Both the position numbers and the translations under genes were made by a program. This document shows positions 4,778 through 32,001 of a stretch of DNA of 60,685 nt, piece after piece. How positions within the stretch are numbered: position 1 is the stretch's first letter; the number at the start of each line of letters is the position of its first letter. Below the pieces are notes generated by a model. It saw only the letters and a list, made by a program, of their open reading frames with translations. It was not told where the DNA came from and searched no databases. Source of the stretch: Candidatus Babeliales bacterium (GTDB lineage: Bacteria > Babelota > Babeliae > Babelales > JABCYS01); NCBI GenBank assembly GCA_016929235.1, contig JAFGJD010000005.1, positions 156,168 through 216,852 of the forward strand, given 5' to 3'.

Positions 4778-5329
4778 TTAAAAGAGAGGACAGAAGCTCA
4801 GGAGATAGAGGCTGCTTTGTAGCTGTTCGTTAAGTTCATCAAGGCGATGTTCATGCTCATAGACAAGGTATCCGTAATTGCCATGACGCATGACCCATAC
4901 GTGGAATGCTGGAGCATGAAAATCAAATTGTTGCGCAATTTCTGTTAACGAACGTTTTGTTTCGTCAATTTCTTCCGCAGCAATTGTATTATGTGCAAAG
5001 TCTTTCACTAACTGATTAAATGTCGATTGCTCCATATGCTGTGTAAATGCCGCATGGTCTTCCCAGATTGGTTCGAGATATGATTCGGCTTTGGAAAAGC
5101 CAACAACACCTTTAAGCATATTAAAATCGGGGCTATCTACAAAGAAAGCTGCCTTGGTAAGATTAAAACAGCTATCTTGACACAACTCATGAAGTACAAA
5201 TTCGGAAACATTATTATTATTCTGCAACGACATCATTCGCCGAGGCAAATCTGCCAAGCACTTTAATATATTGGCATGTTGATCGAATGTTTCACCGCTC
5301 GTTGTCGAGGTTATTTCAGACTTCTTCAT
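4778..5329 (-). CDS. Hypothetical protein, possibly a partial GAF-like fold
   Basis: 183-aa ORF with GAGGG RBS. The pattern AAFFVD...LKGVVG is reminiscent of the first GAF strands (weak). Confidence 0.6.
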   Translation of the reverse strand: MKKSEITSTTSGETFDQHANILKCLADLPRRMMSLQNNNNVSEFVLHELCQDSCFNLTKAAFFVDSPDFNMLKGVVGFSKAESYLEPIWEDHAAFTQHMEQSTFNQLVKDFAHNTIAAEEIDETKRSLTEIAQQFDFHAPAFHVWVMRHGNYGYLVYEHEHRLDELNEQLQSSLYLLSFCPLF

Positions 5330-5467
5330 AGCTCTACCCCTCAGTCACTCACCCTCATCTCCAGTATCTAGCAACAACCATACTCCACATATAAAACAAC
5401 ATCAACCCTCCCTTAATATTGAGTATATTTATAGCCATGGAACGCTTTTTTTTCTATACTCGCAACA

Positions 5468-15405: not shown

Positions 15406-17056
15406 TGTTAAGAATCCTTACTAAATCCTGAACAAATGGTGAAATCGTATAATGATAATCACGCGCAAACTGATGCTCCTTAGTCAACAATTCACGGCAA
15501 GGGAATACTGCAATCCTATTTTCATGTGTCTTGATAATCAGATACTCATTCTTAATACCCTGACGCACTGCCGCACGGAATTCATCGAGAGTTGTAACAT
15601 GTTGTTCGTTCACTTCTGTAATGATCGATCCAAGCGGCAACGCACGAGAACGATGCACTAAAGAATTTGGGAAAATATGTGTCAAAATCAATGCCGGCTC
15701 ATCCTGCTCTTTCGCTTCAGCATATTTACGCAAATACGGAACAACACCCGAAAGAATCTGTACATGATTCAACGCCAACGGCATCACAACCATGCCACCC
15801 AAGACCTCATATTCCAATGGCTCATACAGCGGATGAACTATACGAATTGGTGTAGGCTGCGCTTGATCAAATGTCAGTGAAATCTGTTTGCGCCGCCCCT
15901 TGCGATAGACAACTAATGAGATCTTTTGACCAATCGTCAACTGCTCAACATAGTCTGCAATGGAAATTTTATCTTCACTCCAATCAACACTCATATCCCC
16001 ATACATATCAATTTTATAATCATTGATCTCATAGATCATATCACCAGGTTGAACCCCTGCTCTTTCTAACAAACTATTGTTATAGACATCGATAACGTAG
16101 GTCCCACTTGGCACGGGGTTTCCTAGATATCTAGCCAATGCTTCACTTCCACTGAGGTGTAAGACTCCAAGAAATGGCTTACGCAAGAATTTCACACGAC
16201 GCAGATCATGCGCAATCAATTTAAATTCATTAATCGGAATCACATATCCAACATTTTGTGCGCTTGGAATACCGCCTGCATTAATACCAATAACTTCGCC
16301 CATACGATTCACTGACGGCCCGCCAGAACTTCCCGGATTAATCGGCGCGCTCATTTGAATATATTTTTGGATACCGATACGCTCTCGACCACTAACAACA
16401 CCCGTTGTACTTTTCAATGACTGCTGCGCCAGCGGATATCCCAAAGCTAGAATCTCATCAGCTCGATACACTTTATCAGAATTGCCTAAAGGCAAGCACG
16501 GCATTTTACCCAATATCTGTACAATATATTTACGATCTTCTTCTTGAATTTTGAGTAATGCAATATCTCGCTCAGGGCACAGTCCCACAACATCAACATC
16601 AATTATTCGCTTGCCAAGCGATGGCATCTGAATCCACACCGAAACTGCATTCAACACCACGTGTGCATTGGTAATAATCTCACCCTGCTCACTTATAATG
16701 AAGCCAGAACCAAATCCCTGGCCCTGTGTTGGTGTTTTATACGGCTCCAACAAATCATACTCTACAATTTGTGCATTAATTTGTACCACTGTATCTTTTG
16801 CACCAGCCTGCGCTGCTGCCCACGGCTGCAGCACTTGTATTGGCTCAGGTTGATAGCTTTCAGGCCGCGCGAACAAAGGCATTTGCGTATCGGCAGCAAA
16901 ACCCTCAACCCGGCTCGCAAGATATCGTTGATTGCTGTAAATGATAATCATAAAACCAGCTAAAACACATAAAAATATAAAGGTTAAAAGCCGATACCAG
17001 AACCCATCAGATCGGTGATAAGAGTACATATAAACCCCTGTCTTACCATGATTCAT
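15383..17056 (-). CDS. HtrA/Deg-family trypsin-like serine protease with PDZ domains (likely start 17029)
   Basis: TNAHVV, DIALL and INPGSSGGP catalytic triad; N-terminal TM; PDZ-like C-terminal region. Confidence 0.93.
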   Translation of the reverse strand: MNHGKTGVYMYSYHRSDGFWYRLLTFIFLCVLAGFMIIIYSNQRYLASRVEGFAADTQMPLFARPESYQPEPIQVLQPWAAAQAGAKDTVVQINAQIVEYDLLEPYKTPTQGQGFGSGFIISEQGEIITNAHVVLNAVSVWIQMPSLGKRIIDVDVVGLCPERDIALLKIQEEDRKYIVQILGKMPCLPLGNSDKVYRADEILALGYPLAQQSLKSTTGVVSGRERIGIQKYIQMSAPINPGSSGGPSVNRMGEVIGINAGGIPSAQNVGYVIPINEFKLIAHDLRRVKFLRKPFLGVLHLSGSEALARYLGNPVPSGTYVIDVYNNSLLERAGVQPGDMIYEINDYKIDMYGDMSVDWSEDKISIADYVEQLTIGQKISLVVYRKGRRKQISLTFDQAQPTPIRIVHPLYEPLEYEVLGGMVVMPLALNHVQILSGVVPYLRKYAEAKEQDEPALILTHIFPNSLVHRSRALPLGSIITEVNEQHVTTLDEFRAAVRQGIKNEYLIIKTHENRIAVFPCRELLTKEHQFARDYHYTISPFVQDLVRILNNDKKTTT

Positions 17057-17123
17057 GTTTGATAGAAATGCAGTATAGTGTATTGTATTAGAATTAAAAC
17101 TCTAGGAAAGGTAGGGCATCGTT

Positions 17124-18458
17124 ATGGCAGCATCTGATAAGCGCTCCAGCGCGACATTAGACAAAATCACTGCTCTGTGCAAACGCAGGGGATTCGTATA
17201 TCAGTCGGCTGACATTTACGGGGGTCTGAACGGTGTCTACGATTTTGGGCCTCTCGGCACCTTACTTAAACAAAATATAAAACAAGCATGGACAGCATCA
17301 CTATTCAAAATAAGTGATGCAATCGTGTTACTCGATGGCGCAATTCTTGCGCCACATGCTGTGTGGGAAGCATCCGGCCATACAGAAAGTTTTCACGATC
17401 CTATGGTAGACTGCCTCAATTGCAAAAAAAGATTTCGCGCTGATGATATCGATCTTGATAAAGCATGCCCTTCATGCGGCATTAAAAAATGGACCGATAT
17501 TCGCCAGTTCCACATGATGTTCAAAACCAACTTGGGTGCACTTGCAGATCAAGCATCTGTCGCATACCTACGCCCAGAAACAGCACAAGCTATTTTCATT
17601 AATTTTAAGAATGTTCTTTCGACATCACGTGTAAAAGTTCCGTTTGGCATTGCACAAATTGGCAAAGCATTCCGTAACGAAATCACACCAAAACAGTTTT
17701 TATTCCGTATGCGTGAATTTGAACAAATGGAACTTGAATGGTTCTGCAAACCAAGTGACGCACAGAAGTTCTTCGACTTTTGGATCTCTGCGCGTGAAGC
17801 ATTTTATCAAACAATTGGTATAAAAAAACAAAATCTACGTGTGCGTAGTCACGAAAAAGAAGAACTATCTCACTACTCAACTAATACATCTGACATCGAA
17901 TATCATTTTCCATTTGGCTGGAAAGAACTTGAAGGCATCGCCTATCGAGGCAACTATGATCTCTCACAACACATGAAACACTCAGGAAAAGACCTTTCAA
18001 TCTATGATGATGCAACCAAAGAATCATATGTACCACATGTCGTCGAATGTTCTGTTGGTGTCGATCGACTCTTTCTCACTGCACTCTTTGACGCGTACAA
18101 TGAAGAAACAATCGACGGAGAACAGCGCATTGTTTTGCGTCTGCATCCATCGCTTGCACCGTACAAGGCAGCATTTTTTCCCCTCACAAAAAAACAATCA
18201 GAACCTATGTATACACTGTATAAAAATATTAAAGATGCAGAAATCCCTGTGCAGTTTGATGACTCTGGCTCAATCGGCAAACGCTATAGACGCCAGGACG
18301 AAATTGGAACACCAGTATGCTTCACGTATGATTTTGATTCTGAAATAGATCAATCAGTCACCGTACGTCATCGCGATAGCATGAAACAAGAACGCATCCC
18401 TCTGGACAAAGTGCTTGAGTATATGAAAAATCTTGAAAACATATTCACACAACAATAG
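17124..18458 (+). CDS. glyQS: Glycine--tRNA ligase, homodimeric alpha2 type
   Basis: LCKRRGF, YLRPETAQ, GKAFRNEITP, FRMREFEQME and GSIGKRYRRQDEIGTP. Confidence 0.97.
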   Translation: MAASDKRSSATLDKITALCKRRGFVYQSADIYGGLNGVYDFGPLGTLLKQNIKQAWTASLFKISDAIVLLDGAILAPHAVWEASGHTESFHDPMVDCLNCKKRFRADDIDLDKACPSCGIKKWTDIRQFHMMFKTNLGALADQASVAYLRPETAQAIFINFKNVLSTSRVKVPFGIAQIGKAFRNEITPKQFLFRMREFEQMELEWFCKPSDAQKFFDFWISAREAFYQTIGIKKQNLRVRSHEKEELSHYSTNTSDIEYHFPFGWKELEGIAYRGNYDLSQHMKHSGKDLSIYDDATKESYVPHVVECSVGVDRLFLTALFDAYNEETIDGEQRIVLRLHPSLAPYKAAFFPLTKKQSEPMYTLYKNIKDAEIPVQFDDSGSIGKRYRRQDEIGTPVCFTYDFDSEIDQSVTVRHRDSMKQERIPLDKVLEYMKNLENIFTQQ

Positions 18459-18469
18459 GTCAATACGAC

Positions 18470-19039
18470 ATGTTGAAACGAATCTATGATTGGATGGGAA
18501 GCAAGGTTCACTCAAAACATGCGGATGCTTTTTTGGCGACAATGTTTTTTATCGAAGCGATCTTCATGCTACCCGTCGATCCACTCTTGATCTTGTACTG
18601 TCTTGAAAATAAGCGAAAAGTATTTTATTACGCAGCACTAGCCACTATATCATCTGTTCTTGGCGGCATTGCTGCGTACACCATTGGCTTCGCTGTTTGG
18701 GAAGCAATTGGCCAACGAATTGTTGACGCATTTATTTCGCAAGACACGTTCAACTATCTGTGCACACAATACAAAACCTATGAATCAGCAGCAGTCCTAC
18801 TAGCATCGTTTACACCCATTCCCTACAAGGCAGTAACACTTACGGCTGGTTTTTGCAAACTTTCATTAATGCCATTTATTTTCTTTTCATGCATTGGACG
18901 CGGCGCGCGGTTTTTCCTTGTGGCAACCGTTCTTCATTTCTGGGGGCCGCAGGTCAAGGCGTATATTGACCGTTGGTTTAATATCCTTGTACTCTTATTT
19001 TTGGTCATACTTATATTCGGCATCTTGGCCTTTCGGTAA
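18470..19039 (+). CDS. YqaA/DedA (VTT)-family membrane protein
   Basis: FIEAIFMLPVD, SSVLGG, FTPIPYK and GRGARFF. Confidence 0.9.
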   Translation: MLKRIYDWMGSKVHSKHADAFLATMFFIEAIFMLPVDPLLILYCLENKRKVFYYAALATISSVLGGIAAYTIGFAVWEAIGQRIVDAFISQDTFNYLCTQYKTYESAAVLLASFTPIPYKAVTLTAGFCKLSLMPFIFFSCIGRGARFFLVATVLHFWGPQVKAYIDRWFNILVLLFLVILIFGILAFR

Positions 19040-19062
19040 TACCGTAAAAAAGGGGATCTGTT

Positions 19063-20889
19063 GTGAGTAGATCTTTATCTCTTATGGAACCGTTGAGTAG
19101 AATTATCAAAGCAATCGGTATTGTATTTGGTGATATTGGAACCAGTCCCATTTATACATTGAGCATTGTATTCGCCCTGATCGCACCAACCCGCGCAAAC
19201 ATCATGGGCGTTCTGTCGTTAATTATTTGGACATTGATTCTTTTGGTTACCGTGCAATATATATGGCTCGCTATGAGCCTCAGTCAAAAAGGCGAAGGTG
19301 GAACTATTGTTCTACGCAAGGTTCTCAAACCGCTACTTAACACCGCCAGCGCAAAATCATTTGTAACCATTCTTTCATTCATCGGCATTTCATTCTTGAT
19401 AGGTGATGGCGTAATTACACCCGCCATCAGCATCTTGAGTGCCGTAGAAGGCGTTAAATTAATTCCCGGCATGTTCGCTGTACAGCAAAACCTTCTCGTT
19501 TTGCTTGCCTGCCTTATTGCAATCGGACTGTTCTCATTTCAAAAACAAGGGGCTGAAATAGTCTCAGGAGCATTCGGACCCATTATGGTGCTGTGGTTTC
19601 TTATCCTGGGAGGCTCAGGTCTGTATTGGCTTGCACATGATCCTTCATTTTTAAGCGCATTCAATCCACTACATATCCCACAGTTCATGTACCATAATGG
19701 ATTCGTAGGATTTCTTGTACTTGCACGCGTTATCTTATGCGCAACTGGCGGTGAAGCCTTGTATGCCGGTATCGGCAACTTGGGCCGCAGGCCAATTATT
19801 AATGGATGGTATTTTGCATTCGTTATGCTGCTTCTACACTATTTGGGACAAGGCGTATTCATCATGAACTATCCTGGAAGCGTAGGCAGTATTTTTTACC
19901 AAATGATGTTTACCCAAATGCCACGGCTCTATATTCCATTCGTACTGCTTAGCGTTATCGCAACCGTAATTGCATCACAAGCCATGATCAGCGGTATTTC
20001 CGCTACAGTATATCAAGGAATAATGACAAATATTCTTCCTAGATTACGCGTTGAATACACATCACGTCGTCTCAGCAAACAAATCTACATTCCGGCTATT
20101 AACTGGTCGCTTATGATCATGGTTCTCATTGTGATTCTGCAATTTAAAAGCGCCTACCATATAGCTAATGCCTACGGCCTTGCCGCATTATGTACTATGA
20201 CTATAACCAGCGTCATGATGACCATGATCTTTTATCTTAGGAAAGAATATGTCATGGCCATTATCGCCAATATCATTGTTGGTATCGACATCACATACTT
20301 GGCAGCAAGCACATCAAAGGTCCCCTATGGGGGATACTTACCTATTTTCATTGCAAGTATTCCACTTTCTCTGATCCTGATTTATACAGGAGGCAAACGT
20401 CGCTTATTGAGAGCCGCACGGCCACGTGCATTGCCACAGTTTATTGAAGAATATGAGCAAGCCCGTAAGACCACAAATTGTATCGATGGAACTGCCCTCT
20501 TTTTCTCGCGCCGGGTTAAAATGATCCCTGACTATATTTCATATACCATGTTCAATAATGACATCATGTATGAAGAAAACATCATTCTCTCTGTTATCAC
20601 ACAAAACAAACCATTTGGAGTCGCCGCTGAGTTCGGAGAAAAGCTTGCTGAAGGCCTCTTTTTATTTGAAATCCGTGTCGGATACATGGAAGCCTTGAAT
20701 ATAAAAAAAGTCATCAAAAATGCTAAGATTGATCCTAAAGTAATTTTCTACGGTATGGAAGAAATTGAATCCAAAAATCTGATTTGGAAGATCTTTGCAT
20801 TCATAAAATCAATCACCCCATCATTTGTCCAATTCTATAAACTACCGACTGATCAACTCCACGGGGTTGTTCGCCGCGTTGAGATATAA
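19063..20889 (+). CDS. kup: KUP/HAK/KT potassium transporter
   Basis: GIVFGDIGTSPIY, GEGG, GDGVITPAISILSAVEG, TGGEALYA, ASQAMISG and QIYIPAINW. Confidence 0.96.
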   Translation: MSRSLSLMEPLSRIIKAIGIVFGDIGTSPIYTLSIVFALIAPTRANIMGVLSLIIWTLILLVTVQYIWLAMSLSQKGEGGTIVLRKVLKPLLNTASAKSFVTILSFIGISFLIGDGVITPAISILSAVEGVKLIPGMFAVQQNLLVLLACLIAIGLFSFQKQGAEIVSGAFGPIMVLWFLILGGSGLYWLAHDPSFLSAFNPLHIPQFMYHNGFVGFLVLARVILCATGGEALYAGIGNLGRRPIINGWYFAFVMLLLHYLGQGVFIMNYPGSVGSIFYQMMFTQMPRLYIPFVLLSVIATVIASQAMISGISATVYQGIMTNILPRLRVEYTSRRLSKQIYIPAINWSLMIMVLIVILQFKSAYHIANAYGLAALCTMTITSVMMTMIFYLRKEYVMAIIANIIVGIDITYLAASTSKVPYGGYLPIFIASIPLSLILIYTGGKRRLLRAARPRALPQFIEEYEQARKTTNCIDGTALFFSRRVKMIPDYISYTMFNNDIMYEENIILSVITQNKPFGVAAEFGEKLAEGLFLFEIRVGYMEALNIKKVIKNAKIDPKVIFYGMEEIESKNLIWKIFAFIKSITPSFVQFYKLPTDQLHGVVRRVEI

Positions 20890-20890
20890 C

Positions 20891-20918
20891 AAAAACGGCT
20901 CCGGATTTCCGGAGCCGC
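20891..20918. terminator. Intrinsic terminator between convergent kup and rplU
   Basis: AAAAA-CGGCTCCGGA-TT-TCCGGAGCCG hairpin; the U-tract reads on the minus (rplU) strand. Confidence 0.85.
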
Positions 20919-20937
20919 CTCTTGCTTGTTCAGATTC

Positions 20938-21267
20938 TTATATGGATTCAATCCTTACAACCGTACCAGGCTGACGATGGCCTTGTTTGACCCGTGACTT
21001 TTTACGGCGTTTGAACTTATATGCGATGACCTTAGGGCCCTTGATATGTTTGACAATAGAGGCCTTTACAGGGGTTCCGACGTATGGTTGGCCAATTTCT
21101 ACTTGGCCTTCACCAGTCTTACGAAGGAGAACTTCCGTAAATTCAACTGGGGTTCCCGCTTCACCTTCGAGCAACTCAACAGCAATGGTTTTGCCTGGAA
21201 TCGCTTGGTACTGCTTCCCACCAGTTTGAATAATGGCATATGTCTGAGCTACTGCTTGTGCATCCAT
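20938..21267 (-). CDS. rplU: 50S ribosomal protein L21
   Basis: YAIIQTGGKQY, IGQPYV and KFKRRK...GHRQ. Confidence 0.97.
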   Translation of the reverse strand: MDAQAVAQTYAIIQTGGKQYQAIPGKTIAVELLEGEAGTPVEFTEVLLRKTGEGQVEIGQPYVGTPVKASIVKHIKGPKVIAYKFKRRKKSRVKQGHRQPGTVVRIESI

Positions 21268-21368
21268 GCGAGCAATCCTTTATGGGAGACTTTTCGATTA
21301 GAACTACTGAATAATAAGGAGTATACCAGAACCAAGCGTTTGCTCAAGAATACCCCAATGAGTAATCC

Positions 21369-21398
21369 TTGACTTTCCCAAAACCCCCTGCATAGACT
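21369..21398 (+). promoter_or_regulatory. Putative sigma70 promoter for the 21435 gene
   Basis: TTGACT-18 nt-TAGACT, then AGGAG RBS. Confidence 0.45.
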
Positions 21399-21434
21399 CC
21401 TCATGGAATCTAACCCCCATTTAGGAGAAGATCT

Positions 21435-22346
21435 ATGAAACGAGTTATCTTTGTCCTGCTGGCATCTATGTCCGTAGCTATGGCAAAAAATGTAGTAAAT
21501 GTGCCACTCATGATAGAACCTCAACAACATGTTAATGATGCAGTTAAGGACATCATGGATGAAGTTACCAAGGAAAGAGAAAAACTCGGGACACAAGGAT
21601 CACTATCACTATCAAACAACCTTGCCGCACTCTTCAAGGGCATCTCACAGGATGTTATTCCAGAAATTAAAGCACTCCAGAACGACATGTCTCCGACTGA
21701 AGCCCGTAACATAGATGTCACCACACAAAGTAAGATCGAGAAGGCTATCCAGTCAATCTGCAAGAAAAATACCGTCCTTGAACAACAAGAATCTCGTATC
21801 GAGATGATGGCCAATAGATACCATCAAATCCGACTCGATGAGATACTTGGTGAAACACGGGAAGTCGAAACCTCATATGATACTATTTTTTATGGGGATA
21901 AACTTAAAAACCCTATCAATGATGAAAGCGCCTCAATAGCAGACATTCTTAACGAAGTACTTTCTGAGATGTGGCGATTATCAGCACAGGAAAATGAACA
22001 TTTTTTTGCGCAAATAACCACGAACGTGCAAGCTGGATACTGTCCAGGAGGAAAACGGGTAAAACGCCAAGCCAGAAATTACTGTCCCGGCGAAGCACAA
22101 CCACCTAAGGATGAACAAAAACGTATTAACAAATGGATCGATAAAATGAATTTCAATCAATGGGGTGACTGCAAGGGGACCATGTACACCGGAGGCTCTG
22201 CATCATTTGATGAAAGAACTGGGTGCTACCATACCCAATATTCGATCCTCATCAAGAAATATCCCGACAAGCCGTGGAACCAACCAGAAAATACATGGAC
22301 AGCATGGAAAACCACTTGGGGAACAAATCATAGAACGTGCAATTAA
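21435..22346 (+). CDS. Hypothetical exported protein
   Basis: AGGAG RBS; signal peptide MKRVIFVLLASMSVAMA; helical N-terminal part and an aromatic/Gly-rich C-terminal module. Confidence 0.75.
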   Translation: MKRVIFVLLASMSVAMAKNVVNVPLMIEPQQHVNDAVKDIMDEVTKEREKLGTQGSLSLSNNLAALFKGISQDVIPEIKALQNDMSPTEARNIDVTTQSKIEKAIQSICKKNTVLEQQESRIEMMANRYHQIRLDEILGETREVETSYDTIFYGDKLKNPINDESASIADILNEVLSEMWRLSAQENEHFFAQITTNVQAGYCPGGKRVKRQARNYCPGEAQPPKDEQKRINKWIDKMNFNQWGDCKGTMYTGGSASFDERTGCYHTQYSILIKKYPDKPWNQPENTWTAWKTTWGTNHRTCN

Positions 22347-22411
22347 AAACACGTTATATGCTCTTTAGATAGACGTAGAGTCCATATGTGACTCTGCGTC
22401 TATTTTTATAC

Positions 22412-25159
22412 TCAATGAAGCTGATAAACCTTACAGCGACGGCTCACCGACGAACGATTAACACCTATAAATTCAGCAATTTTATTTTGATTTTTGAACG
22501 TATCCCACAACAACTGCATCACGTGTTGATTCTTGAGGGCTTGCTTTCCAAGACGCGCAGCTGCTTGTAATTGTTCTTTATCAGGCATACTTGCATTGTC
22601 GAAAGCTACCTCAAACAAACCCGTCCTTTTTCTTGATTTAGCATGTATATATTCTTGAACCGTCTTTCGCAACTGCACAAACCCTATTGGTTTTTCAGCT
22701 ATGAACCTAATTTTTTCAGCTTCATTGAGAACTACCGATCGCTTATATGGCAACGCATGGGCTTCTTGCTGAATATATGCATCCATAATACTACTAAGCA
22801 CCGCGTGCTCTAACGAAAGAGGATCAGGGATATAAACTTGAGCACCCTTCAGTTCCTCATAGAGTGTCTTCGAGAAGTAGCCACTCAACACAAGTTTTTC
22901 GATATCTTTATCGGAAGCCACAACAATCTGTGCAAGGCCAATTCGCTTCTGCTCACTTTTATATAAACGATACCAACCATATTTGAGGTACTCAGCAAGC
23001 TGATTTTGCAAAGTCATACTCAATTTATGGACATCATGAATAATGATCGTGCCATCAGATCCCGCTCGCTCTAGAAGTGCCATTCTCGGCTTGCCTACCG
23101 TCACCACAGGATCGAGACCAAAAAGCTCTTCGGCAATCGAAGCCTCATCGCGATCTCCTGGATTTAGATAATACGCACAACCAGCAGAAGAAGCTGTATG
23201 CACAAGATCAGCAAGGACCTTACAATCATCTTGCGCTCCCAAAAGAAACAATGCCCTATGCTCAATCATTTTCCGCATAAAACTAACCTTGAATTTCAGG
23301 AGGGGTAACGAAAACAACGGAATAATCTCATTAAGTCGTTGCCCTGTCTTAGTACCATGAAGATGCAGAAGAGAAAGCCAATCATGACGATCCTGAAACT
23401 GCTCTGATTGAATGAGAACTTTCTGTCCAATTCCCTGCTCACGTAAGGTCAAAACTACTTCTTTGCGACTACTGTCAGGAAATCCAGTGATTTTAATTGA
23501 TTTTCCCTCTCCATTCTCCGCTTCTGCAAATGACATAGTCTTGTAAAGCTCAACAAATTGGACCACCTTTTTGCAGGCCACCGCAAGAGGATGAGCATCC
23601 TGGGTATTCAAGTTAATCGAAACTAACTGCTGTGCATCTGTATTTCCTAAAATGAATTTACCTTCACTATAAAATACTAGCCCTTCTTTTCTTCGCTTCG
23701 TCTCATGAAGCTTTGCCCTGAGGCTTTCATGACAAAACTCGAACCCACGCTCTTGAGCATAAAGAACTTCTTGAAGTTTGCGCTCTTGTACTTCGACTGC
23801 TTCTATACTTCTTGTTTGTAATAGATGTAAAATATTGCCTAAGTAACTTGCAAGGATCAACATCTCATCACGTTCAACATTATTGTAAAATGCCTGGCGA
23901 GGTCGTGCGCCACGCTCAATCACGATATAGGCCATAAGCGTATCATTGTAATAAATAGGTAGAAACACAGCTGCATTCAACGAATCAAGAAACTTTAAAA
24001 ATACTTGGTACAGATCTTCATCGGCATAGATTTGATCAAAGGCTAGCTCATCAGTAATCAAGATCTTTTTCGAAGAGAGATAATTAGATATAGCCTCTTT
24101 TGATTGCACTGCACGCAAAAAATGTTCAACAGTATACTTCATCTGCGATGATGGCTTGAGACGACCCTCCGCTTCATTCAGCGCACCATAAGGTCGCTCA
24201 ATAAAATGAACATATTGCGTGTCGATATCAAAGGCCTCATTCACAAACGTCCGAACAAGAGCCGATAAATCATGTAATGAGGTTATCTTTCCTAGCTGAT
24301 GCAAAAAAACTTTAAACTGATCAACAAAGATTACTTGTACAGGAGCTTCTACATGCTCACGCATATTTAAAAAGCGTAGACCTCGCATACGGCTAATAAC
24401 TACATAAAGAGCGATAACGACAGATAATGAAAGAAGATTATGGAGGGCTGGCATAGTAAAGCCCAATGTTTGCTGCAACATGATAAGCGGAAAAAACATC
24501 GTAGGATACGCACACGCAAATTCAAAAATTCCTGCCGGCAAAATAATGTATTTCAACAAAATACCAAGCTGCTGTTGCAACAAATATGGGATCTTGAGTT
24601 TTTTAAGCTGTGCAAGAAAGGGAAACACTATTAAGAACGTTGTGAAAAGGAAATACCAAATGGATATAACTCGCCAGTAATACACCCAATGTTGGCTCGG
24701 CCCAAAGTGATAAAAATTAAGAAATAAGTCATATACAAAAGGCAAACAAATTAGTGAAGTAACAACAACAATTCCTCTGTGAAGCCTTCGAACCTCAAAC
24801 CTCTTTCCCAGTAAATTTCCAACAAAAAACATCAAAAATACGTTAAGCAAGGAATTAAGGATCCATGCACATTTAACAATAATATCTGAGAACAAATTCA
24901 AGCTATCGGGAAATGGAGAGGACGCAAGATTTCGATATAAAGGCAATATCCATGAAATATCGATAAACATGGAACTTGCTAGGTATAGCATAGCATAGCG
25001 AATAGCCGTTCTAATATGGGTATTTGGCTCTCTGAAAAAAACAATCACTGCAAGTAGAAAAAGTTTCAAGGCCGCGGATGTAACCGCAAGTGCCAGCGCC
25101 ATGTTTTGACTAAAAATAAATGCTTCTAAATAAGAAAAAACAATATTCATAATCACCAC
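22412..25159 (-). CDS. Multi-pass membrane one-component regulator: ~7 TM + GAF-like + degenerate sigma54-activator AAA+ + Fis-type HTH
   Basis: About 7 hydrophobic helices in the first ~260 aa; GAF-like FLPIYY...AYIVIER; EELFG, GTIIIHDVHKL...LQ and IVVAS AAA remnants; C-terminal NQNKIAEFIGVNRSSVSRR HTH. Confidence 0.85.
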   Translation of the reverse strand: MVIMNIVFSYLEAFIFSQNMALALAVTSAALKLFLLAVIVFFREPNTHIRTAIRYAMLYLASSMFIDISWILPLYRNLASSPFPDSLNLFSDIIVKCAWILNSLLNVFLMFFVGNLLGKRFEVRRLHRGIVVVTSLICLPFVYDLFLNFYHFGPSQHWVYYWRVISIWYFLFTTFLIVFPFLAQLKKLKIPYLLQQQLGILLKYIILPAGIFEFACAYPTMFFPLIMLQQTLGFTMPALHNLLSLSVVIALYVVISRMRGLRFLNMREHVEAPVQVIFVDQFKVFLHQLGKITSLHDLSALVRTFVNEAFDIDTQYVHFIERPYGALNEAEGRLKPSSQMKYTVEHFLRAVQSKEAISNYLSSKKILITDELAFDQIYADEDLYQVFLKFLDSLNAAVFLPIYYNDTLMAYIVIERGARPRQAFYNNVERDEMLILASYLGNILHLLQTRSIEAVEVQERKLQEVLYAQERGFEFCHESLRAKLHETKRRKEGLVFYSEGKFILGNTDAQQLVSINLNTQDAHPLAVACKKVVQFVELYKTMSFAEAENGEGKSIKITGFPDSSRKEVVLTLREQGIGQKVLIQSEQFQDRHDWLSLLHLHGTKTGQRLNEIIPLFSLPLLKFKVSFMRKMIEHRALFLLGAQDDCKVLADLVHTASSAGCAYYLNPGDRDEASIAEELFGLDPVVTVGKPRMALLERAGSDGTIIIHDVHKLSMTLQNQLAEYLKYGWYRLYKSEQKRIGLAQIVVASDKDIEKLVLSGYFSKTLYEELKGAQVYIPDPLSLEHAVLSSIMDAYIQQEAHALPYKRSVVLNEAEKIRFIAEKPIGFVQLRKTVQEYIHAKSRKRTGLFEVAFDNASMPDKEQLQAAARLGKQALKNQHVMQLLWDTFKNQNKIAEFIGVNRSSVSRRCKVYQLH

Positions 25160-25179
25160 TCTTGTTTCGGCTGAAGTTG

Positions 25180-25188
25180 TGGTAAACT
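25180..25188 (+). promoter_or_regulatory. Putative extended -10 element for the small peptide gene
   Basis: TG-G-TAAACT, about 45 nt upstream of the ATG at 25232. Confidence 0.35.
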
Positions 25189-25231
25189 ACCTATGGAAGT
25201 ATTGTTGAACCCTATAGCGATGAGGTGTGTC

Positions 25232-25312
25232 ATGAAGTTCCTACAATTCGCAGCTAGTTTGTGTTTTTACGCACTGACCTTCTTTGAGGTCATGCCTCCA
25301 GGCGGCGGGTAA
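25232..25312 (+). CDS. Small peptide, 26 aa (MKFLQFAASLCFYALTFFEVMPPGGG); candidate signalling-peptide precursor
   Basis: GAGGT RBS 5 nt before the ATG; MK plus hydrophobic core; followed by hairpins and a terminator. In-frame upstream ATGs also exist at 25193 and 25220. Confidence 0.65.
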   Translation: MKFLQFAASLCFYALTFFEVMPPGGG

Positions 25313-25362
25313 CAGTCGCAGTTACGATTACCGACTGTTACATTCGGTAATCATAGCAAGAT

Positions 25363-25412
25363 AAAACCACCTCTGCAAAACCCTTTAATAGGTTTGAGAG
25401 GTGGTTTTCTTT
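25363..25412. terminator. Bidirectional intrinsic terminator
   Basis: AAAACCACCTCT (25363-25374) / AGAGGTGGTTTT (25397-25408) with inner AAACC/GGTTT pairing, followed by CTTT. Confidence 0.8.
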
Positions 25413-25949
25413 ATAAAAAATAACAAGGCCTCATCTTCGGTTTGTGATTATAGCTATTCTTGATCTCTGCGCCTGCGGCTTTTGACTTTACCAATTCATG
25501 CCATCTGTAAAACAATGTTACGTTTTCTGAACCCTGCTCAGCCGCTTGTTCTGCTAGAAACAGCTTCTGCAAAAAACATTCTCGGCGGCTGGTCACACAC
25601 CCAGACAATCTTCCCTACATCTTATTAAAAAAGTTCGTGATAAGCCCGCAAACATCTAATTCCTTCTCATAATAGGAATCAGGAGCACCTGCTTCGTCGC
25701 ATTTTGAATACCACCCATGAGGTATTTCGCCGCACTCGCTTCTGTAACGCTCACGAATACGACGCCCCGCTCCGGCTGATCGTGTTCATGAAGCAGTTCC
25801 TACTATGATAGATTGTTAGGAAGCCACGCCCCTGAGAGCAACAACAAAAAGATATGAACCTTCCCAACGTCTACCTAAGGAATCCAGCTTATAATGGCAA
25901 CGGTATAAACATATAAGCTGACACTAAAAAAATACATACGGACTTTCAC
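25411..25949 (-). pseudogene. Degraded paralog of the tandem-signal-peptide protein family
   Basis: Fragments in different frames with stops: MKVRMYF, PL*AGFLR*TL, FLLLLSGAW and GRRIRERYRSEC...ELDVC, compared with GRAAAAWYERAC...ELDPC of the neighbouring gene. The 3' boundary is approximate. Confidence 0.6.
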
Positions 25950-26013
25950 AATAAACCATTTGCCAAAAGCCCCAATTGCATTATCCTGCATTTCATCACA
26001 AAACTATACAAAC

Positions 26014-26847
26014 TTAGACCTCATCCTCTCTATCCGATCCTTGTGCTGCAACCCTCTTTCTCCAATAGGCAATCTCATATGGCATCAGCCCATCGTCATC
26101 TCGATGCCGCATTATGAGTTTTGCATACAGAGCCTCCCGACTTTCATCTAATGGCAAACCGTCTATTGCACGCCGAAGAGCTTCGTCTAGCCGAGCAATT
26201 CTTTTTCCAACAGGAAAAGCTGTCTTCGTCTCTTCATCAACATGAAACATGCCAAATTGCTCTAAAATCGGAATATCATCATGACCAATCCCGCTATAGT
26301 CCCATGTAGGGCTACGGTATCCGGTTAATACCTGCATCATGATAAGAGCCGTTCTTTCTTCCCCAATTGTTCGTATCAGATTTATGGTTCTACCGGCCCG
26401 ATTGAGCCACCGGCCATATGCCTGCGCATTTGCTTCCGGAACACCATCAGCAAACCGTTCTTGTCCACGAGAAATCTGACCTAATTCCGCGTGGAATGCA
26501 TTGCAAGGATCTAGCTCAGAAGCAGTATCCGTATCAGACACACATGCTCGCTCATACCAGGCTGCAGCGGCACGCCCTTGCTCCTCATCTTGCAAATCAA
26601 GCCCAACTAAGAATTGACTTCTCCCATAAGGCAACGCTGAATTCTCTTTCTCCGGATACAGCATCGCATAGTCTCCCCCAAGCGGAAAATAATGATTATC
26701 CTCTTCCCCTTTCTGTGAAATTGAACCAGCTGGTGATAGCAAAAGGAGAGAGACAAGCAGTTTACTCAGCCATCCCGCCTCTAAAGGAATTTTCCACAAA
26801 AGTAACACCAATATTACATATGCTTTAAAGTAGTTCTGAATCTTCAT
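26014..26847 (-). CDS. Exported protein, tandem-signal-peptide family member 1
   Basis: Two consecutive hydrophobic leaders; WYERAC and ELDPCNAFH; shares motifs with the 43666-46070 genes. Confidence 0.75.
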   Translation of the reverse strand: MKIQNYFKAYVILVLLLWKIPLEAGWLSKLLVSLLLLSPAGSISQKGEEDNHYFPLGGDYAMLYPEKENSALPYGRSQFLVGLDLQDEEQGRAAAAWYERACVSDTDTASELDPCNAFHAELGQISRGQERFADGVPEANAQAYGRWLNRAGRTINLIRTIGEERTALIMMQVLTGYRSPTWDYSGIGHDDIPILEQFGMFHVDEETKTAFPVGKRIARLDEALRRAIDGLPLDESREALYAKLIMRHRDDDGLMPYEIAYWRKRVAAQGSDREDEV

Positions 26848-27166
26848 AAGATACCTTTCATGAAACACCCTCCAAATCATTTACACCACGGAGTTAAGTA
26901 TGGAGAGATTTTAAAAAATTCCTAACCCCCATTTCATACCGTTCAGAAAACATTACCACTGGAGTTTTAAAAATCAGTATAAAGCCGAGAAATCACGTAG
27001 TGTAATTTGTTCTAGTAGCCTTGATACGCCAGAATACATGCGGAGACACGCTAGACTATCCCGCGTTTTGCATTGCGATTCAGCCAAAAATATTATAGAT
27101 TGTGTTCGCATTTAACACCGGTGATCGCAGAAACAAGAAGCTATAGACAAATACTAGGGAATAATA

Positions 27167-28201
27167 GTGGAACTGAAAGTTTTAATCGCTGGAATATCAG
27201 GGGCTTCCTTAGGTACAGAAATTTTGAAATGTCTAAAACTCGCACGGGACTACACCATCTATGGAGCAGACATATCACCATATGCGTACGGTCTTTATCA
27301 GAATGAATTCGAAAAAACATTTACCGTTTCTTCAGGATCCTATATTTCCGATATTCTTTCTATTGTTCAGTCTTATAATATTGCAGTGATTATACCGGGA
27401 GGAGAAGAGCCCCTGTCGCTCCTAATGGCAAACAAGCACATTTTTGATGAATACAACATTAGACTAGCCATAAATGATCCAGCCACCATTAGCGTCTGTC
27501 AAAACAAACTTAAGACATTTGAATTTCTCCAGAAACACCATATAGCAATTCCCCGGACCGAAAGGCTTGTTGGCACGGCGCAACTCGCATCATTTGATTA
27601 TCCCTGCATTATAAAACCTTCCACTGATTCAGGTGGTAGTGTTTTTGTTTCCTTTGCCGAGACAGAAGAAGAAGCAATATCACACTACAAACACCTAAAA
27701 AAAATAGGAATTTCAGAAATTATCATCCAGGAATATATCTCTCACCAAGATGGCGAATTTACCGTCGGAGTTCTATCATCACCAGAGGGAGAGATTATCG
27801 ATACCGTCGGACTCAAGAAAGTATTTGGTTGTAAAATGTCCTATAAAGAGAAATCCGAAAAAAGTATCATCTCTTCGGGATACAGCCAGGGACTCATCGA
27901 TAATTTCCCAGAAATACACAAACAGGCTGAAAAAATTTCCCAAACGTTACAAAGCAAGGGTCCTCTCAATATCCAGGGTCGAATTAAAAACTCCGTCTTT
28001 CATCCTTTTGAAATCAACTGCCGATTTTCAGCAAGTAGCTATTTGCGAGCAATGGCAGGAGTAAATGACATTGATATTTTCATCAAATCAATGCTCAATC
28101 TCCCCTATGAACCAAGTCCAAAAAAATATGGCTACTACTTCAGAACTCTGCATGAACAATTCGTACCAAAAAATAGGATCAAAGAATGGTCAAATGGATA
28201 A
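27167..28201 (+). CDS. ATP-grasp protein (CarB/PylC-like)
   Basis: IIPGGEE, IIKPSTDSGGS, IIQEYI and FEINCRFS. Confidence 0.88.
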   Translation: MELKVLIAGISGASLGTEILKCLKLARDYTIYGADISPYAYGLYQNEFEKTFTVSSGSYISDILSIVQSYNIAVIIPGGEEPLSLLMANKHIFDEYNIRLAINDPATISVCQNKLKTFEFLQKHHIAIPRTERLVGTAQLASFDYPCIIKPSTDSGGSVFVSFAETEEEAISHYKHLKKIGISEIIIQEYISHQDGEFTVGVLSSPEGEIIDTVGLKKVFGCKMSYKEKSEKSIISSGYSQGLIDNFPEIHKQAEKISQTLQSKGPLNIQGRIKNSVFHPFEINCRFSASSYLRAMAGVNDIDIFIKSMLNLPYEPSPKKYGYYFRTLHEQFVPKNRIKEWSNG

Positions 28202-29451
28202 CACCGTTCCTTGGAACAACAAATTACCAATCCATTCCTCAGGGAGATTATTTCCTTGTTGATGCTCGGGAACTTCTTGACGGTCCCAATAACGGTGTGG
28301 AACTGGTCCGGTCAAAAGTAGAGGCAGGAACAATGGCCCTAAAAGAAGGGCGGTCTGTCATTGTGTTTTGTCATTATGGCATCTCGCGTAGCAACGCTAT
28401 CGCTACTGGTATACTTGCACAATATAAACAATGGAACTTTAACCAAGCATTGGAAGTCGTTTTTAAGGAAATAGACGAATCCAATATCGATTTCAATATG
28501 CTTCAAACAGTTAGAGACTGCCTACAGCACAAACCATATAATCACAAAAACATTCTCATCACCGGAGCCCATGGATTTTTGGGAAAACGACTACACGCAA
28601 AGCTGCAAAAGGAAATGCTTGGTGCAGTAGAAGTTCATGGTATTGATGTTGATACAATAGACTTGTGTTCTGATCGCATGCGACTAAATCAGTTTGTTCA
28701 TGAAAAAGAAATTGAAAAGATTATACACCTAGCACACCCATTTCCACACAATGCACAATCTACGGGTAATGCCCTCTGTATGCTTCAGAACCTTCTTGAG
28801 GTTGTTCACACCAATGGTCTTAAAATGATATTTACTAGTAGTTGGGTTGTCTACGAAAATAGCTCCGAGAAAAATATCTGCGAAAAGACGGCACTCGCCC
28901 CGAAAACAATATATGGTATGTCCAAAGCGCTTTGTGAACACTTGATTTCATATTATAGAAAACTTTATAACGCCAATATAACGATCGCCAGGCTCTCACC
29001 AATTTACAGCACCACAAAAATGCCAGGATTTATGAGCACTTTTTTTGAATATGCAGCCCAAAATAAAACCATAAGAACACATTTGTACGAAAATGGCTCG
29101 CCTGCAATGCAGCTTCTTCACGTCGATGATGCCATCAATGCACTATTTCAAGCATCGCAGCACACTAATCTCCCGAATTCACTTAATGTATCAACTCATG
29201 AAAGGTATTCTGTTCATGAAATTGCGCACATGATCAAAGAGATCGGTTGTTCCAAGTCTGCCATACAAAGATGTTCCATGATGGGAAAAACCTTTACCGG
29301 AAAAATAGACCCATCAAATACAATGGGAATTCTAGACTGGAAACCCAACGTAAGGCTGCAAGATGGGCTCACATTGATAAATAAACAATTTCAAAAGGAA
29401 ACGACGTGGAGAAAAAGGCCTCCAACTACACAACAGAGCGCAAGCTTGTAG
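28186..29451 (+). CDS. Fusion of a dual-specificity phosphatase-like domain and an NAD-dependent epimerase/dehydratase
   Basis: N-terminal FCHYGISRS (CX5RS); then ITGAHGFLG and YGMSK (SDR). Confidence 0.85.
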   Translation: MVKWITPFLGTTNYQSIPQGDYFLVDARELLDGPNNGVELVRSKVEAGTMALKEGRSVIVFCHYGISRSNAIATGILAQYKQWNFNQALEVVFKEIDESNIDFNMLQTVRDCLQHKPYNHKNILITGAHGFLGKRLHAKLQKEMLGAVEVHGIDVDTIDLCSDRMRLNQFVHEKEIEKIIHLAHPFPHNAQSTGNALCMLQNLLEVVHTNGLKMIFTSSWVVYENSSEKNICEKTALAPKTIYGMSKALCEHLISYYRKLYNANITIARLSPIYSTTKMPGFMSTFFEYAAQNKTIRTHLYENGSPAMQLLHVDDAINALFQASQHTNLPNSLNVSTHERYSVHEIAHMIKEIGCSKSAIQRCSMMGKTFTGKIDPSNTMGILDWKPNVRLQDGLTLINKQFQKETTWRKRPPTTQQSASL

Positions 29452-30200
29452 CGAATTACGAGTGGAATAGAACTCACTATAAAACCTATAGCGGTATTCT
29501 CAGCTGCTTTTGCGCTCAATCCGTAATAGAAAATTCTTCTGGGGGAACGCTTCTCGATCTTGCATGTGGTGATGGAACCATTACAAGATTACTAAGCCCA
29601 CACTTTGACAAAATTGTTGGTGTTGACGGATCTCAAAAACATTTAAAACTTGCACAAGAAAAGCTTCCTCATGCCGAATTCCACGCAAGTTTAATAGAAG
29701 AATTTGAATACAACGAACAATTCGATGTTACAACCCTCCTTCTTATTCTAGAACATGTTATAGATCCAGTTACATTGTTACAACACGTAACCAAATTTCT
29801 TAAACCAAATGGAAAGATGATTATTCAGGTTCCCAATGCTTTGGCCTGCAATAGAAGGATAGCAAAAATAATGGGGACAATCACAAGCGAATACGAGCTG
29901 TCGCCATTTGATATCAACATTGCTGGCCACAGAAGGTCCTACGACAAGGCTCTCCTGGTAAAAGACATCACAGCGGCTGGCCTTACCGTACAATCCACCG
30001 GTGGAATCTTTTACAAAATGCTTTCACAATCGCAAATGGACTGGTTTTTAGAAAACGGCCGATGGAATAACGAGTTTGGATGGGGCCGAGTTGGAGGTGA
30101 ACAAAAAGATTGGAAATTTGAATTCTGCCGGGCATGTTATGAGTATGGCAAAACGCAGCCAGATCAATGCAATCTCATATACGCATGCGTAACAAAATAA
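29406..30200 (+). CDS. Class I SAM-dependent methyltransferase
   Basis: LLDLACGDG, GVDGS, LEHVIDP and LKPNG. Confidence 0.9.
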   Translation: MEKKASNYTTERKLVANYEWNRTHYKTYSGILSCFCAQSVIENSSGGTLLDLACGDGTITRLLSPHFDKIVGVDGSQKHLKLAQEKLPHAEFHASLIEEFEYNEQFDVTTLLLILEHVIDPVTLLQHVTKFLKPNGKMIIQVPNALACNRRIAKIMGTITSEYELSPFDINIAGHRRSYDKALLVKDITAAGLTVQSTGGIFYKMLSQSQMDWFLENGRWNNEFGWGRVGGEQKDWKFEFCRACYEYGKTQPDQCNLIYACVTK

Positions 30201-30229
30201 GCTCGGAGGCTTAAAAACGAGGATTAAGT

Positions 30230-31459
30230 GTGACTAATTGCCGCTTTTGCAATACCCCTCTCACCGTTACTTTTACTGATCTAGGAACATCACCTCTTTC
30301 CAACGCTTACGTCGCAAAAGAGAGCATCTCCTCAGAAAAGTACTACCCTCTTCATGCGTACGTATGCACCAACTGCCTCCTCGTCCAGGTTGCTTCATTT
30401 GAAGATCCCGATGTCATTTTCTCAAGTGATTATGCATATTATTCTTCATATTCAAGCTCCTGGCTCAAGCATTCTGAAGACTATGCAAAGATGATCGTCA
30501 AAAAGTTCAGTCTAGATAACAAAAGCTTTGTCGTAGAAGTAGCAAGCAACGACGGATACCTCCTCCAGTTTTTTCAAGCACAGCATATTCCGCACCTTGG
30601 AATAGAACCGACAAAAAACACAGCTGATGCCGCACTCAAAAAGGGCATCCCAACTCTACGCGAGTTTTTTGGAAAAGAATTAGCAAACAAACTACAAACC
30701 ACAGATAAATCTGCTGATTTGATCGTTGCAAACAATGTCCTTGCACATGTTCCCGATCTAAATGATTTTATCGCCGGTATGAAGATTCTCTTGAAGGCAT
30801 CAGGTATTATCACTATAGAGTTCCCACATCTTCTCAATCTGATACAACATAACCAATTTGATACGATATACCATGAACACTTTTCTTATTTCTCATTAGC
30901 TACAGCGCAAAAAATCTTTGCTCATCATAATCTGACCATCTTTGACGTAGACCAAATTCCGACTCATGGCGGATCACTGAGAATCTATGTAAGACATACA
31001 GATGATATCTGTAAAAAAGTTACTACGAACATAGATGCTATTCTTGCTGAAGAAGAAAAAGCTGGTCTTACAAAACTAGAAACGTATCAGCAGTTCCAAC
31101 TCAAAGTTGAGCAGCTGAGGGCGGAGTTTTTATCTTTTCTTAGTGACATTCAAAAGAAGAAAGGCACAATCGCTGGATACGGTGCTCCCGCAAAGGGGAA
31201 CACATTCTTAAATTATTGCCAGATTACTCCCAGTATGCTCCCTTTCACAGTTGACAAAAATCCCGCCAAACAAAACAAGTATTTACCCGGAACCCATATT
31301 CCCATTTTCCATCCCGGAGAAATAAAAAAGCAAAAACCTAACTATGTGCTCATTTTACCCTGGAACCTTCAAGAAGAAATCACCAAAGAGCTTGCATATA
31401 TTAAGAGCTGGGGTGGTAGATTTATTGTTACTTCTCCGAAACCAAAGATTTTGTCATGA
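30230..31459 (+). CDS. NDP-hexose C-methyltransferase family protein
   Basis: CRFC/CTNC zinc motif, EVASNDG, FDTIYHEHFSYF, HGGSLR and GYGAPAKG. Confidence 0.92.
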   Translation: MTNCRFCNTPLTVTFTDLGTSPLSNAYVAKESISSEKYYPLHAYVCTNCLLVQVASFEDPDVIFSSDYAYYSSYSSSWLKHSEDYAKMIVKKFSLDNKSFVVEVASNDGYLLQFFQAQHIPHLGIEPTKNTADAALKKGIPTLREFFGKELANKLQTTDKSADLIVANNVLAHVPDLNDFIAGMKILLKASGIITIEFPHLLNLIQHNQFDTIYHEHFSYFSLATAQKIFAHHNLTIFDVDQIPTHGGSLRIYVRHTDDICKKVTTNIDAILAEEEKAGLTKLETYQQFQLKVEQLRAEFLSFLSDIQKKKGTIAGYGAPAKGNTFLNYCQITPSMLPFTVDKNPAKQNKYLPGTHIPIFHPGEIKKQKPNYVLILPWNLQEEITKELAYIKSWGGRFIVTSPKPKILS

Positions 31460-32001
31460 AATTTATCACCCTCCCACTAAGTGGAGCATTCTTAATTGAG
31501 CTGGAGCCACATCGTGATCATCGTGGATATTTTGAAAGAACCTGGTGCAAAAAAGAATTTGAAACACAAGGTATTGTCAAACCGTTTGTCCAAACAGCTC
31601 TTTCTTATAATGAGCAAAGGGGGACTCTCCGAGGAATTCACTTTCAAAAAAAGCCTCACCAGGAGGCAAAACTCATTTCATGTATTCAAGGATCTGCCTA
31701 CGATGTCATTGTAGATCTGCGACCAACGTCTGTAACATTCCTCCAAACGTTTACAGCTATCCTTTCAGAGGAAAAACATAACGCTATTTATATTCCTGAA
31801 GGATTCGCTCACGGCTTTCAAACCCTCGAGGACAAGACAAAACTATCCTATGCTCTTACGGCCTATCATCATCCAGACAGTGCATCTGGGATCAGGTGGG
31901 ATGACCCTACGCTTTCAATTTCGTGGCCTATTGATACGATGATAATCTCTAAAAAAGACCAAGACTGGGATCATGTACCAAGGACAACGCAGTCCTCATG
32001 A
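31456..32001 (+). CDS. rfbC: dTDP-4-dehydrorhamnose 3,5-epimerase (RmlC family)
   Basis: DHRGYF, GTLRGIHFQ, DVIVDLR, IPEGFAHGFQTL and GIRWDDP. Confidence 0.93.
   Translation: MKFITLPLSGAFLIELEPHRDHRGYFERTWCKKEFETQGIVKPFVQTALSYNEQRGTLRGIHFQKKPHQEAKLISCIQGSAYDVIVDLRPTSVTFLQTFTAILSEEKHNAIYIPEGFAHGFQTLEDKTKLSYALTAYHHPDSASGIRWDDPTLSISWPIDTMIISKKDQDWDHVPRTTQSS

Follow-up and report, generated by a model that had tools for sequence, protein, structure and literature searches.

The window analysed here is a stretch of 60,685 nucleotides (nt) from a Candidatus Babeliales genome (assembly GCA_016929235.1, contig JAFGJD010000005.1), and its positions 22,412 to 25,412 contain a gene encoding a large membrane-bound regulator, placed head to head with a very small gene (Table 1). 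The regulator combines a seven-transmembrane (7TM) sensor and a helix-turn-helix (HTH) domain in a single chain. In the sequence record it is called as a protein of 912 aa starting at ATG 25150, and the gap between the two divergent genes is 72 or 81 nt because translation of the regulator may start at GTG 25159 or at ATG 25150. The small gene encodes a peptide with a short basic N-terminal end, a hydrophobic core and the C-terminal residues V-M-P-P-G-G-G, and makes up the 3' portion of a longer in-frame open reading frame (ORF) of 39 codons, which starts at ATG 25193. An original prediction, made from the sequence of the window, took the small ORF for an unannotated peptide gene with a good ribosome site and its own terminator, and proposed that its product is sensed by the neighbouring regulator. 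The ORF is confirmed as a real, previously unannotated gene, and a Shine-Dalgarno-like GAGGTG lies 4 nt before its ATG. As to the terminator, the hairpin at 25363-25408 is well separated from shuffled sequences, but the consensus terminator scan of the window listed none, missing this hairpin and that at 25321-25357. The best promoter candidate for the peptide gene is absent from the listing of the consensus promoter scan, and the window copy is degenerate in this respect: compared with the family consensus, the promoter is weaker and lies at a greater distance from the start of the regulator. The pair formed by the receptor and peptide genes is real, widespread and undescribed, and a signalling function is likely, as judged from sequence comparison.

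Table 1. Features of the regulator-peptide locus in the window and of its second copy in the same genome
Feature	Position	Strand	Remarks
Small peptide gene, 26 aa	25232..25312	+	Exactly as quoted in the original prediction; candidate ligand precursor
Shine-Dalgarno-like GAGGTG	25222..25227	+	4 nt ahead of peptide ATG 25232
Best-scoring sigma70-type promoter candidate for peptide gene	25177..25205	+	Weak -35, 17-nt spacer, -10 TATTGT
RNA hairpin, 9-bp core	25321..25357	+	Directly after peptide stop; z -5.7, 0/200 shuffles
Terminator-like hairpin between A and U tracts	25363..25408	.	z -5.7, 0/200 shuffles
Membrane-bound one-component regulator (915 aa with start GTG 25159)	22412..25159	-	7TM, GAF-like, coiled coil, PAS-like, AAA+, HTH
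7TM sensor, amphipathic helix and seven helices	24362..25150	-	AlphaFold pLDDT 89; fold of G protein-coupled receptors (GPCR)/rhodopsins
GAF-like, coiled coil and PAS-like, cytoplasmic	23396..24346	-	Secondary-structure order in model
Enhancer-binding-protein-type AAA+ (about residues 608-845)	22625..23338	-	Pfam Sigma54_activat; VIA-align Z 21 to DmpR/NtrX
Fis-type HTH	22415..22500	-	Most conserved part of family
Second module copy (L002), same genome	contig C3 33736-36604		Regulator 34% identical to that of the window

Recurrence and conservation of the divergent peptide gene

Homologous regulators were drawn from three sources: 41 relatives gave 30 loci, the 80 best-matching of 212 genome stretches gave 69, and the 80 best-matching of 348 metagenome stretches gave 78, so the locus set leans to closer relatives. 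The 240 matching frames were reduced to 193 of full length, to 184 with at least 350 nt upstream and finally to 171 after merging at 97% identity; 56 frames were dropped as truncated or short-flanked and 13 as duplicates. Wherever a source gives a name, the homologues are named as Dependentiae/Babeliales, and 10 loci come from records titled as Pseudomonadota; a further protein search with the alignment as query added no named records. Under a strict rule, fixed beforehand, a divergent small ORF had to show a hydrophobic stretch followed by Pro-Pro in its last 16 residues. Such an ORF is found at 122 of the 171 loci, compared with 14 of 855 shuffles, four of 171 loci on the same strand and three of 161 downstream. 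Downstream on the opposite strand 29 of 161 loci show a match, which we attribute to the peptides of tandem partners lying there. The peptide of the window narrowly falls outside this rule (hydropathy 1.75, below 1.8) and is included by a relaxed rule, which was set only after looking at the misses of the strict one. With the relaxed rule the ORF is present at 147 of the 171 non-redundant regulators, at seven of 171 on the same strand, in 57 of 855 shuffles and at 34 of 336 long genes of the genome of the window, its two regulators included. A scan of this 809-kb genome for ORFs with a ribosome site, a hydrophobic core and a terminal Pro-Pro returned four: two lie inside long genes, and two are intergenic and face its two regulators. 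At five loci (L015, L022, L023, L031 and L074) the divergent neighbour encodes a longer, secreted-looking protein devoid of a terminal Pro-Pro; these may have different ligands or be lost pairs.

The 147 divergent ORFs share a ribosome site, a hydrophobic leader and a C-terminal x-x-Pro-Pro-x-x, and have a median length of 32 aa and a median distance to the regulator of 88 nt. The peptide has 40 residues or fewer in 134 of them, and 135 contain Pro-Pro. The stop codon follows the Pro-Pro by exactly two residues in 76 and by one to three in 120, a spacing that is expected if the free C-terminal end is what is read. The hydrophobic core shows no conserved residue. The conserved element of the family is Pro-Pro, and not the glycine tail pointed out in the original prediction. 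Related loci were grouped into 42 disjoint pairs to count codon changes. At the Pro-Pro codons there are 35 synonymous and three replacement changes, which indicates selection at the amino acid level, and the aligned part of the peptide as a whole drifts (145 synonymous and 431 replacement changes in 759 codons). The differences at the three codon positions are 351, 252 and 413, second positions being the least changed. Upstream of the peptide start, G-rich columns are placed at 6-10 nt (130 loci), and a sigma70-type promoter aimed at the peptide gene, with TTG-(A/C)-T, 17 nt and TATACT, is found at 143 of 147 loci and in 334 of 1710 shuffles. Its -35 box lies 5-7 nt from the regulator start in 87 of 160 cases, and a reverse -10 box overlaps it in 118 of 160, a count that has no formal null; because of this overlap both genes probably share one divergent promoter. 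Between 70 nt before and 75 nt after the -35 box, the operator search gave no conserved column besides the -35 and -10 boxes. A conserved TT after the -35 may be part of the promoter, of the ribosome site of the regulator or of an operator, the comparison covering only 17 promoter-like sites of the genome. Three metatranscriptomes of the same study contributed no contig over positions 21000-27200, which speaks neither for nor against transcription.

The small ORF is therefore a real conserved gene, far beyond chance. As the original prediction had anticipated, regulators homologous to this one are faced again and again by small ORFs with a hydrophobic leader, and these show codon-level conservation. 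That it is a chance ORF or a non-coding element would be suggested by its shortness and by the window copy, which is left out by the strict filter and has a weak promoter, but recurrence, ribosome site, promoter and codon-level selection effectively refute this for the family.

Architecture of the regulator

Regulators of this family range from about 880 to 930 aa and show seven transmembrane (TM) helices. In the AlphaFold model the order is an N-terminal amphipathic helix, the seven TM helices, a GAF-like domain, a coiled coil, a PAS-like domain, AAA+ and HTH. The order 7TM-GAF-AAA-HTH that had been read from the sequence holds, as does the one-component architecture with sensor and HTH in one chain, but a probable PAS-like domain has to be added and the AAA domain is degenerate. 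The PAS-like assignment is taken from topology in the model and from the name used by a source. Pfam GAF_2 matches seven of 57 homologues (best E 6e-4) and not the copy of the window, and the middle region has no PDB match better than E 0.36. Walker A and GAFTGA motifs were each found in none of the 171 regulators, and sigma54 (PF04552) in none of 41 genomes, in a search that was positive in four of 14 controls; since neither the motifs nor sigma54 were found, the AAA+ domain cannot be a working sigma54 activator. The recognition-helix columns of the HTH are 87-99% identical over the 171 sequences, and Pfam HTH_8 matches two of 21 members. No histidine kinase domain was found in the regulator by Pfam and NCBIfam scans, and no kinase gene adjoins it. 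No tetratricopeptide repeat (TPR) family matched in the same scans, the model being accounted for by 7TM, GAF/PAS-like, AAA+ and HTH.

The 7TM domain matches no PDB entry by sequence, and no Pfam family matches more than one of 109 members. A profile search with this domain returned just 395 relatives among 1.84 billion representatives. HisKA_7TM (PF16927) matched none of the 109 TM domains and nothing in this genome, and among the language-model neighbours of the domain one cluster shows HisKA_7TM on 21% of its members. In structural comparison with VIA-align the best match is GPRC5D (Z 16.8, root-mean-square deviation 3.9 over 232 residues), and the 50 matches listed all show Z of at least 13.5. 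With Foldseek the model reaches a TM-score of up to 0.60, with an E value of just 3e-3. We make no claim of homology to GPCRs because the identity to solved ones is 5-19%. Microbial rhodopsins carry their retinal-binding Lys in helix 7. No such Lys is conserved within TM7 over the 171 sequences, and a near-invariant Lys sits in TM1. Five positions in TM1-3 are conserved in 81-96% of the 171 sequences: K32, D67, W70, R/K96 and W99 (915-aa numbering), residue 96 being typically Arg in the family and Lys in the regulator of the window, a long-branch member that departs from several family-typical residues. K32, D67, W70, R96 and W99 could form a pocket for the Pro-Pro tail with its free carboxyl end.

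Pairing of regulator and peptide

Tandem regulators are present at 35 loci. Both copies have a peptide at 28 of them, and the two tails are always different, the downstream copy often ending in Arg/Lys-aromatic-Pro-Pro and the upstream copy often being acidic. One distinct peptide for each receptor argues for pairing as ligand and receptor. We propose a self-contained peptide signalling module with a released signal, in which a single polypeptide acts as receptor and transcription factor for a self-made ligand, and we give this about an even chance of being right. The peptide gene would be transcribed from the conserved sigma70 promoter back to back with the regulator, and the hydrophobic leader would take the product into the inner membrane. 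A cut by signal peptidase I (SPase I) or by an RseP-type intramembrane protease would free a C-terminal peptide of 5-10 residues with a rigid Pro-Pro core, which may bind the neighbouring regulator on the outer side of its 7TM domain, with conserved Trp residues plausibly placed against Pro-Pro and Lys/Arg against the carboxyl end. The signal could then pass through TM7, an invariant R-F-L-N linker, GAF, the coiled coil and the dead AAA+ scaffold to the HTH, which would control sigma70 transcription independently of ATP hydrolysis, sigma54 and phosphorylation. Speculatively, the signal may report the build-up of the parasite in the periplasm or in a host compartment and time a step of the intracellular cycle. 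A bolder version, with the balance of probability somewhat against it, makes the GPCR-fold receptor a transcription factor read by Pro-Pro 'hormones' with paralogue-specific codes, a third architecture of peptide signalling next to the kinase-linked and the RRNPP kind, which most of this obligately intracellular phylum with two membranes would have retained for self-counting in the host and for timing the passage from replication bodies to infectious cells.

Tail similarity correlates with identity of the TM domain (rho 0.18) and not with identity of the cytoplasmic part (0.01). The partial correlation of tail and TM domain is 0.24 (0/300 permutations, under a null that ignores kinship), and the changes of tail class required on the TM and the cytoplasmic tree are 30 and 36, 38 and 43, and 20 and 23, respectively. 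Of 21 basic-type peptides, 19 go with a long second outer loop. The expected co-variation of peptide and TM domain was recovered in this form, but it is not significant on independent pairs and is suggestive only, as far as the sequences go. Prediction of the complex of the 7TM domain with the 39-codon peptide gave scores of 0.01, 0.49 and 0.00 in runs that had no controls, and is used neither way.

Release of the peptide is supported by 12 of the 147 precursors, in which at least 10 residues separate leader and motif. Several of these (L013, L030, L066 and L068) show ordinary signal peptides, and the genome contains two SPase I genes and one M50 protease. Three precursors are long, with a signal peptide and a repeated Pro-Pro motif (three copies in L014, five in L018 and two in L036), and resemble multi-copy pheromone precursors. 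AgrB (PF04647) was not found in this genome, which is 99% complete, and no dedicated ABC exporter of the ComAB type, which serves double-glycine leaders, was seen among the ORFs read at 15000-33000, no family search having been aimed at it.

A number of observations weigh against the released ligand. At 24 of the 171 regulators no peptide is detectable. On independent pairs of peptide type and loop, two changes go in the same direction and none in the opposite (p 0.5, not significant). Loop-charge complementarity is weak (rho about -0.2), and a cytoplasmic loop comes out as equally 'significant'. Linkage alone could yield the pattern between tail and TM domain, because the peptide gene adjoins the TM-coding end of the regulator gene. 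Many of the structural matches stand at Z 14-15 and microbial rhodopsins score nearly as high, and the GPCR/rhodopsin resemblance of the model is one of fold, not of function. Ahead of the expected cut, small residues of the SPase I type show no more than a modest excess (51 of 139, against 15-44 at other offsets); they are present in 37 of 53 acidic types and in four of 21 basic (Arg-type) ones, and the peptide of the window shows no SPase I-type site beside its motif. Finally, in 91 of 147 loci a gene for an HhH-GPD glycosylase comes after the peptide gene on the same strand, which a leader role would also account for.

The scarcity of cleavage sites in the Arg-type peptides is also what a membrane-tethered modulator would show, as MgrB acts on PhoQ. 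The product would then be an uncut single-pass microprotein with the N-terminal end inside, whose Pro-Pro tail meets the 7TM domain in the cell that made it. There it would serve as a tethered agonist or as a brake in a feedback loop, and the real outside signal would be something else. The motif lies fewer than 10 residues past the hydrophobic core in 135 of 147 peptides, mostly two to four, many longer peptides have an N-terminal extension ahead of the core, and the evidence from pairing and selection fits a tether equally well. We consider this unlikely, though far from negligible: in the long and multi-copy precursors many residues separate the motif from what is an ordinary signal peptide, the longest uncharged run (median 16) is short for a lasting membrane anchor, with at least 18 residues in just 50 of 147 and fewer in 97, and the core has no conserved residue, though helix-helix docking should fix some. 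MgrB itself is a membrane protein of 47 aa in a negative-feedback loop (PMC8404706, in the portion available). Both cases involve a very small hydrophobic protein with a membrane sensor as its predicted target; the sensor fold differs, the peptide core is unconserved here, and long or repeated precursors imply released forms.

The interaction of peptide and regulator is deduced from gene pairing, and the divergent layout with overlapping promoters is also that of a regulator and its target. The peptide could be an output only, a secreted product or effector that the regulator controls and that is directed at the host or at some other protein. What the 7TM domain senses would then be a lipid, metabolite or peptide of the host; GAF and PAS-like domains are known to bind small ligands. 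It is improbable in our view, as each receptor paralogue has a distinct peptide, the fixed core is surrounded by fast-changing flanks as in signal families, and tail class fits the TM tree better than the cytoplasmic tree.

The adjacency of the glycosylase gene bears on another reading, in which the peptide is a leader or arrest peptide whose Pro-Pro stalling controls the downstream gene, usually that glycosylase, or the shared promoter, its link to the regulator being inherited gene order. A C-terminal Pro-Pro together with a localisation signal in a small protein recalls the RAPP/RGPP arrest peptides (PMC12992588); ApdA, ApdP and SecM are systems of this kind. However, RAPP, RGPP, RAPG and RAGP occur in none of the 147 peptides, about four being expected (related loci are not independent in this figure), even though many peptides have Arg at -2 (20) or Ala/Gly at -1 (32). 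The spacer of at least 30 residues, given as criterion for Sec/YidC monitors in the accessible part of PMC10987492, is found in just one of 147 and is otherwise too short. The next gene past the peptide is convergent in 48 of 147 loci, being the tandem regulator in 35 of these, and in the window is convergent and 701 nt off, so that there is often no downstream gene to control. The glycosylase gene does not follow the peptide in the window or in tandem second copies, and it is the regulator, rather than the glycosylase, that the peptide accompanies in duplications and relocations. An arrest peptide is thus very improbable, and we read the adjacency of the glycosylase as ancestral gene order, possibly with one transcript.

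Relation to known systems, distribution and gene neighbourhood

In AgrC/AgrD and ComD/ComC a multi-pass membrane sensor is encoded beside a small precursor with a variable tail. The module described here shares this layout of membrane sensor and small variable-tail precursor, but it has no kinase or response regulator, AgrB was not found in the genome, the receptor carries its own DNA-binding domain and the conserved motif is a Pro-Pro near the C-terminal end. With RRNPP systems (Rgg/SHP) it shares the adjoining propeptide, the basic N-terminal end, the hydrophobic core, a presumed C-terminal active part and the lack of a kinase, and the 26-aa peptide of the window is within the propeptide range of 10-100 aa (PMC10075063, as far as accessible). 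RRNPP receptors are described in the same text as cytoplasmic TPR proteins of 250-500 aa that need import of the peptide, whereas this regulator is a 7TM membrane protein of about 900 aa with no TPR match, in a phylum with two membranes. The analogy to Agr/Com and Rgg/SHP in the original prediction thus stands for the layout and not for the kinase, AgrB, the TPR receptor or the host lineage. The output half, with GAF/PAS, AAA+ and Fis HTH, resembles that of the sigma54-independent relatives DhaR, TyrR and NtrX, which are the best NCBIfam matches of the regulator, far under cut-offs. It differs from them in the N-terminal 7TM domain, the loss of Walker A and GAFTGA throughout the family and the peptide-gene partner; with sigma54-dependent enhancer-binding proteins it shares the AAA+ fold and Fis HTH, but not GAFTGA, Walker A or sigma54. 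Bacterial and archaeal GPCR-fold 7TM sensors have already been reported (PMC13581589, in the portion available). Prokaryotic 7TM sensors (HisKA_7TM kinases, diguanylate cyclases) and eukaryotic peptide GPCRs have the seven-helix topology in common with this domain; here sensor and output, a transcription factor, form one chain, and HisKA_7TM is not matched in Pfam. The module is probably a variant of peptide signalling whose receptor and peptide family are outside RRNPP, Agr/Com and sigma54 activators. A literature search returned no description of it, most subscription papers being outside the reach of that search.

The bacteria of this phylum live inside protists, and Dependentiae genomes are near 1 Mb. 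Despite this small size, the regulator of some 900 residues is retained in 183 of 261 genomes of the phylum, and the presence of more than one copy is frequent. Presence is nearly all-or-none by family: it is found in 14 of 21 families and not in seven. Families with no detected copy include some with 0 of 35 and 0 of 12 genomes, others being near constant (79 of 80), and this may reflect a difference of lifestyle. For one Dependentiae isolate quorum-sensing mechanisms are reported to be absent, and the same paper describes inner and outer membranes and replicating bodies from which cocci arise by division at a late stage of infection (PMC6561590); the outer-membrane machinery of Babeliales is described as degenerate (PMC4776705, in the portion available). 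If the peptide is the ligand, a peptide receptor and a transcription factor are united in a single chain. This would be the first natural ligand class found for a bacterial GPCR-fold sensor of such sort and would offer a handle on how these protist parasites time their cycle, and about 150 natural receptor-peptide pairs with short tails could give orthogonal one-gene peptide sensors.

The second copy of the module in the genome of the window (L002) encodes a peptide of 18 aa ending in T-S-P-P-G-W-P, and shows the consensus promoter and an HhH-GPD glycosylase gene as the next gene. The window copy looks like a relocated and diverged duplicate because L002 holds the usual position of the family. 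Downstream of the glycosylase gene of L002, a 76-codon ORF (5121-5351, minus strand) encodes a Lys/Arg-rich repeat with resemblance to histone-like proteins. One genome (G039) of a family that does not have this regulator shows a HisKA_7TM cluster (L209 and L210), with one member with a kinase-like C-terminal end and three of about 320-335 aa. It may represent another set of sensors or stem from contamination, which is reported at 5%, and a quick listing gave no comparable small ORFs at these HisKA_7TM genes. In the window, the module is flanked by two genes encoding proteins with signal peptides (21435-22346, plus strand, and 26014-26880, minus strand), which may be candidate targets and match no Pfam or NCBIfam family. 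Some 600 nt (25410-26013) separate the terminator-like hairpin from the convergent gene and contain no long ORF. At tandem loci such as L033, L039 and L136, the downstream copies mostly group together on the TM tree and scatter on the cytoplasmic tree, which may point to gene conversion between the output halves.

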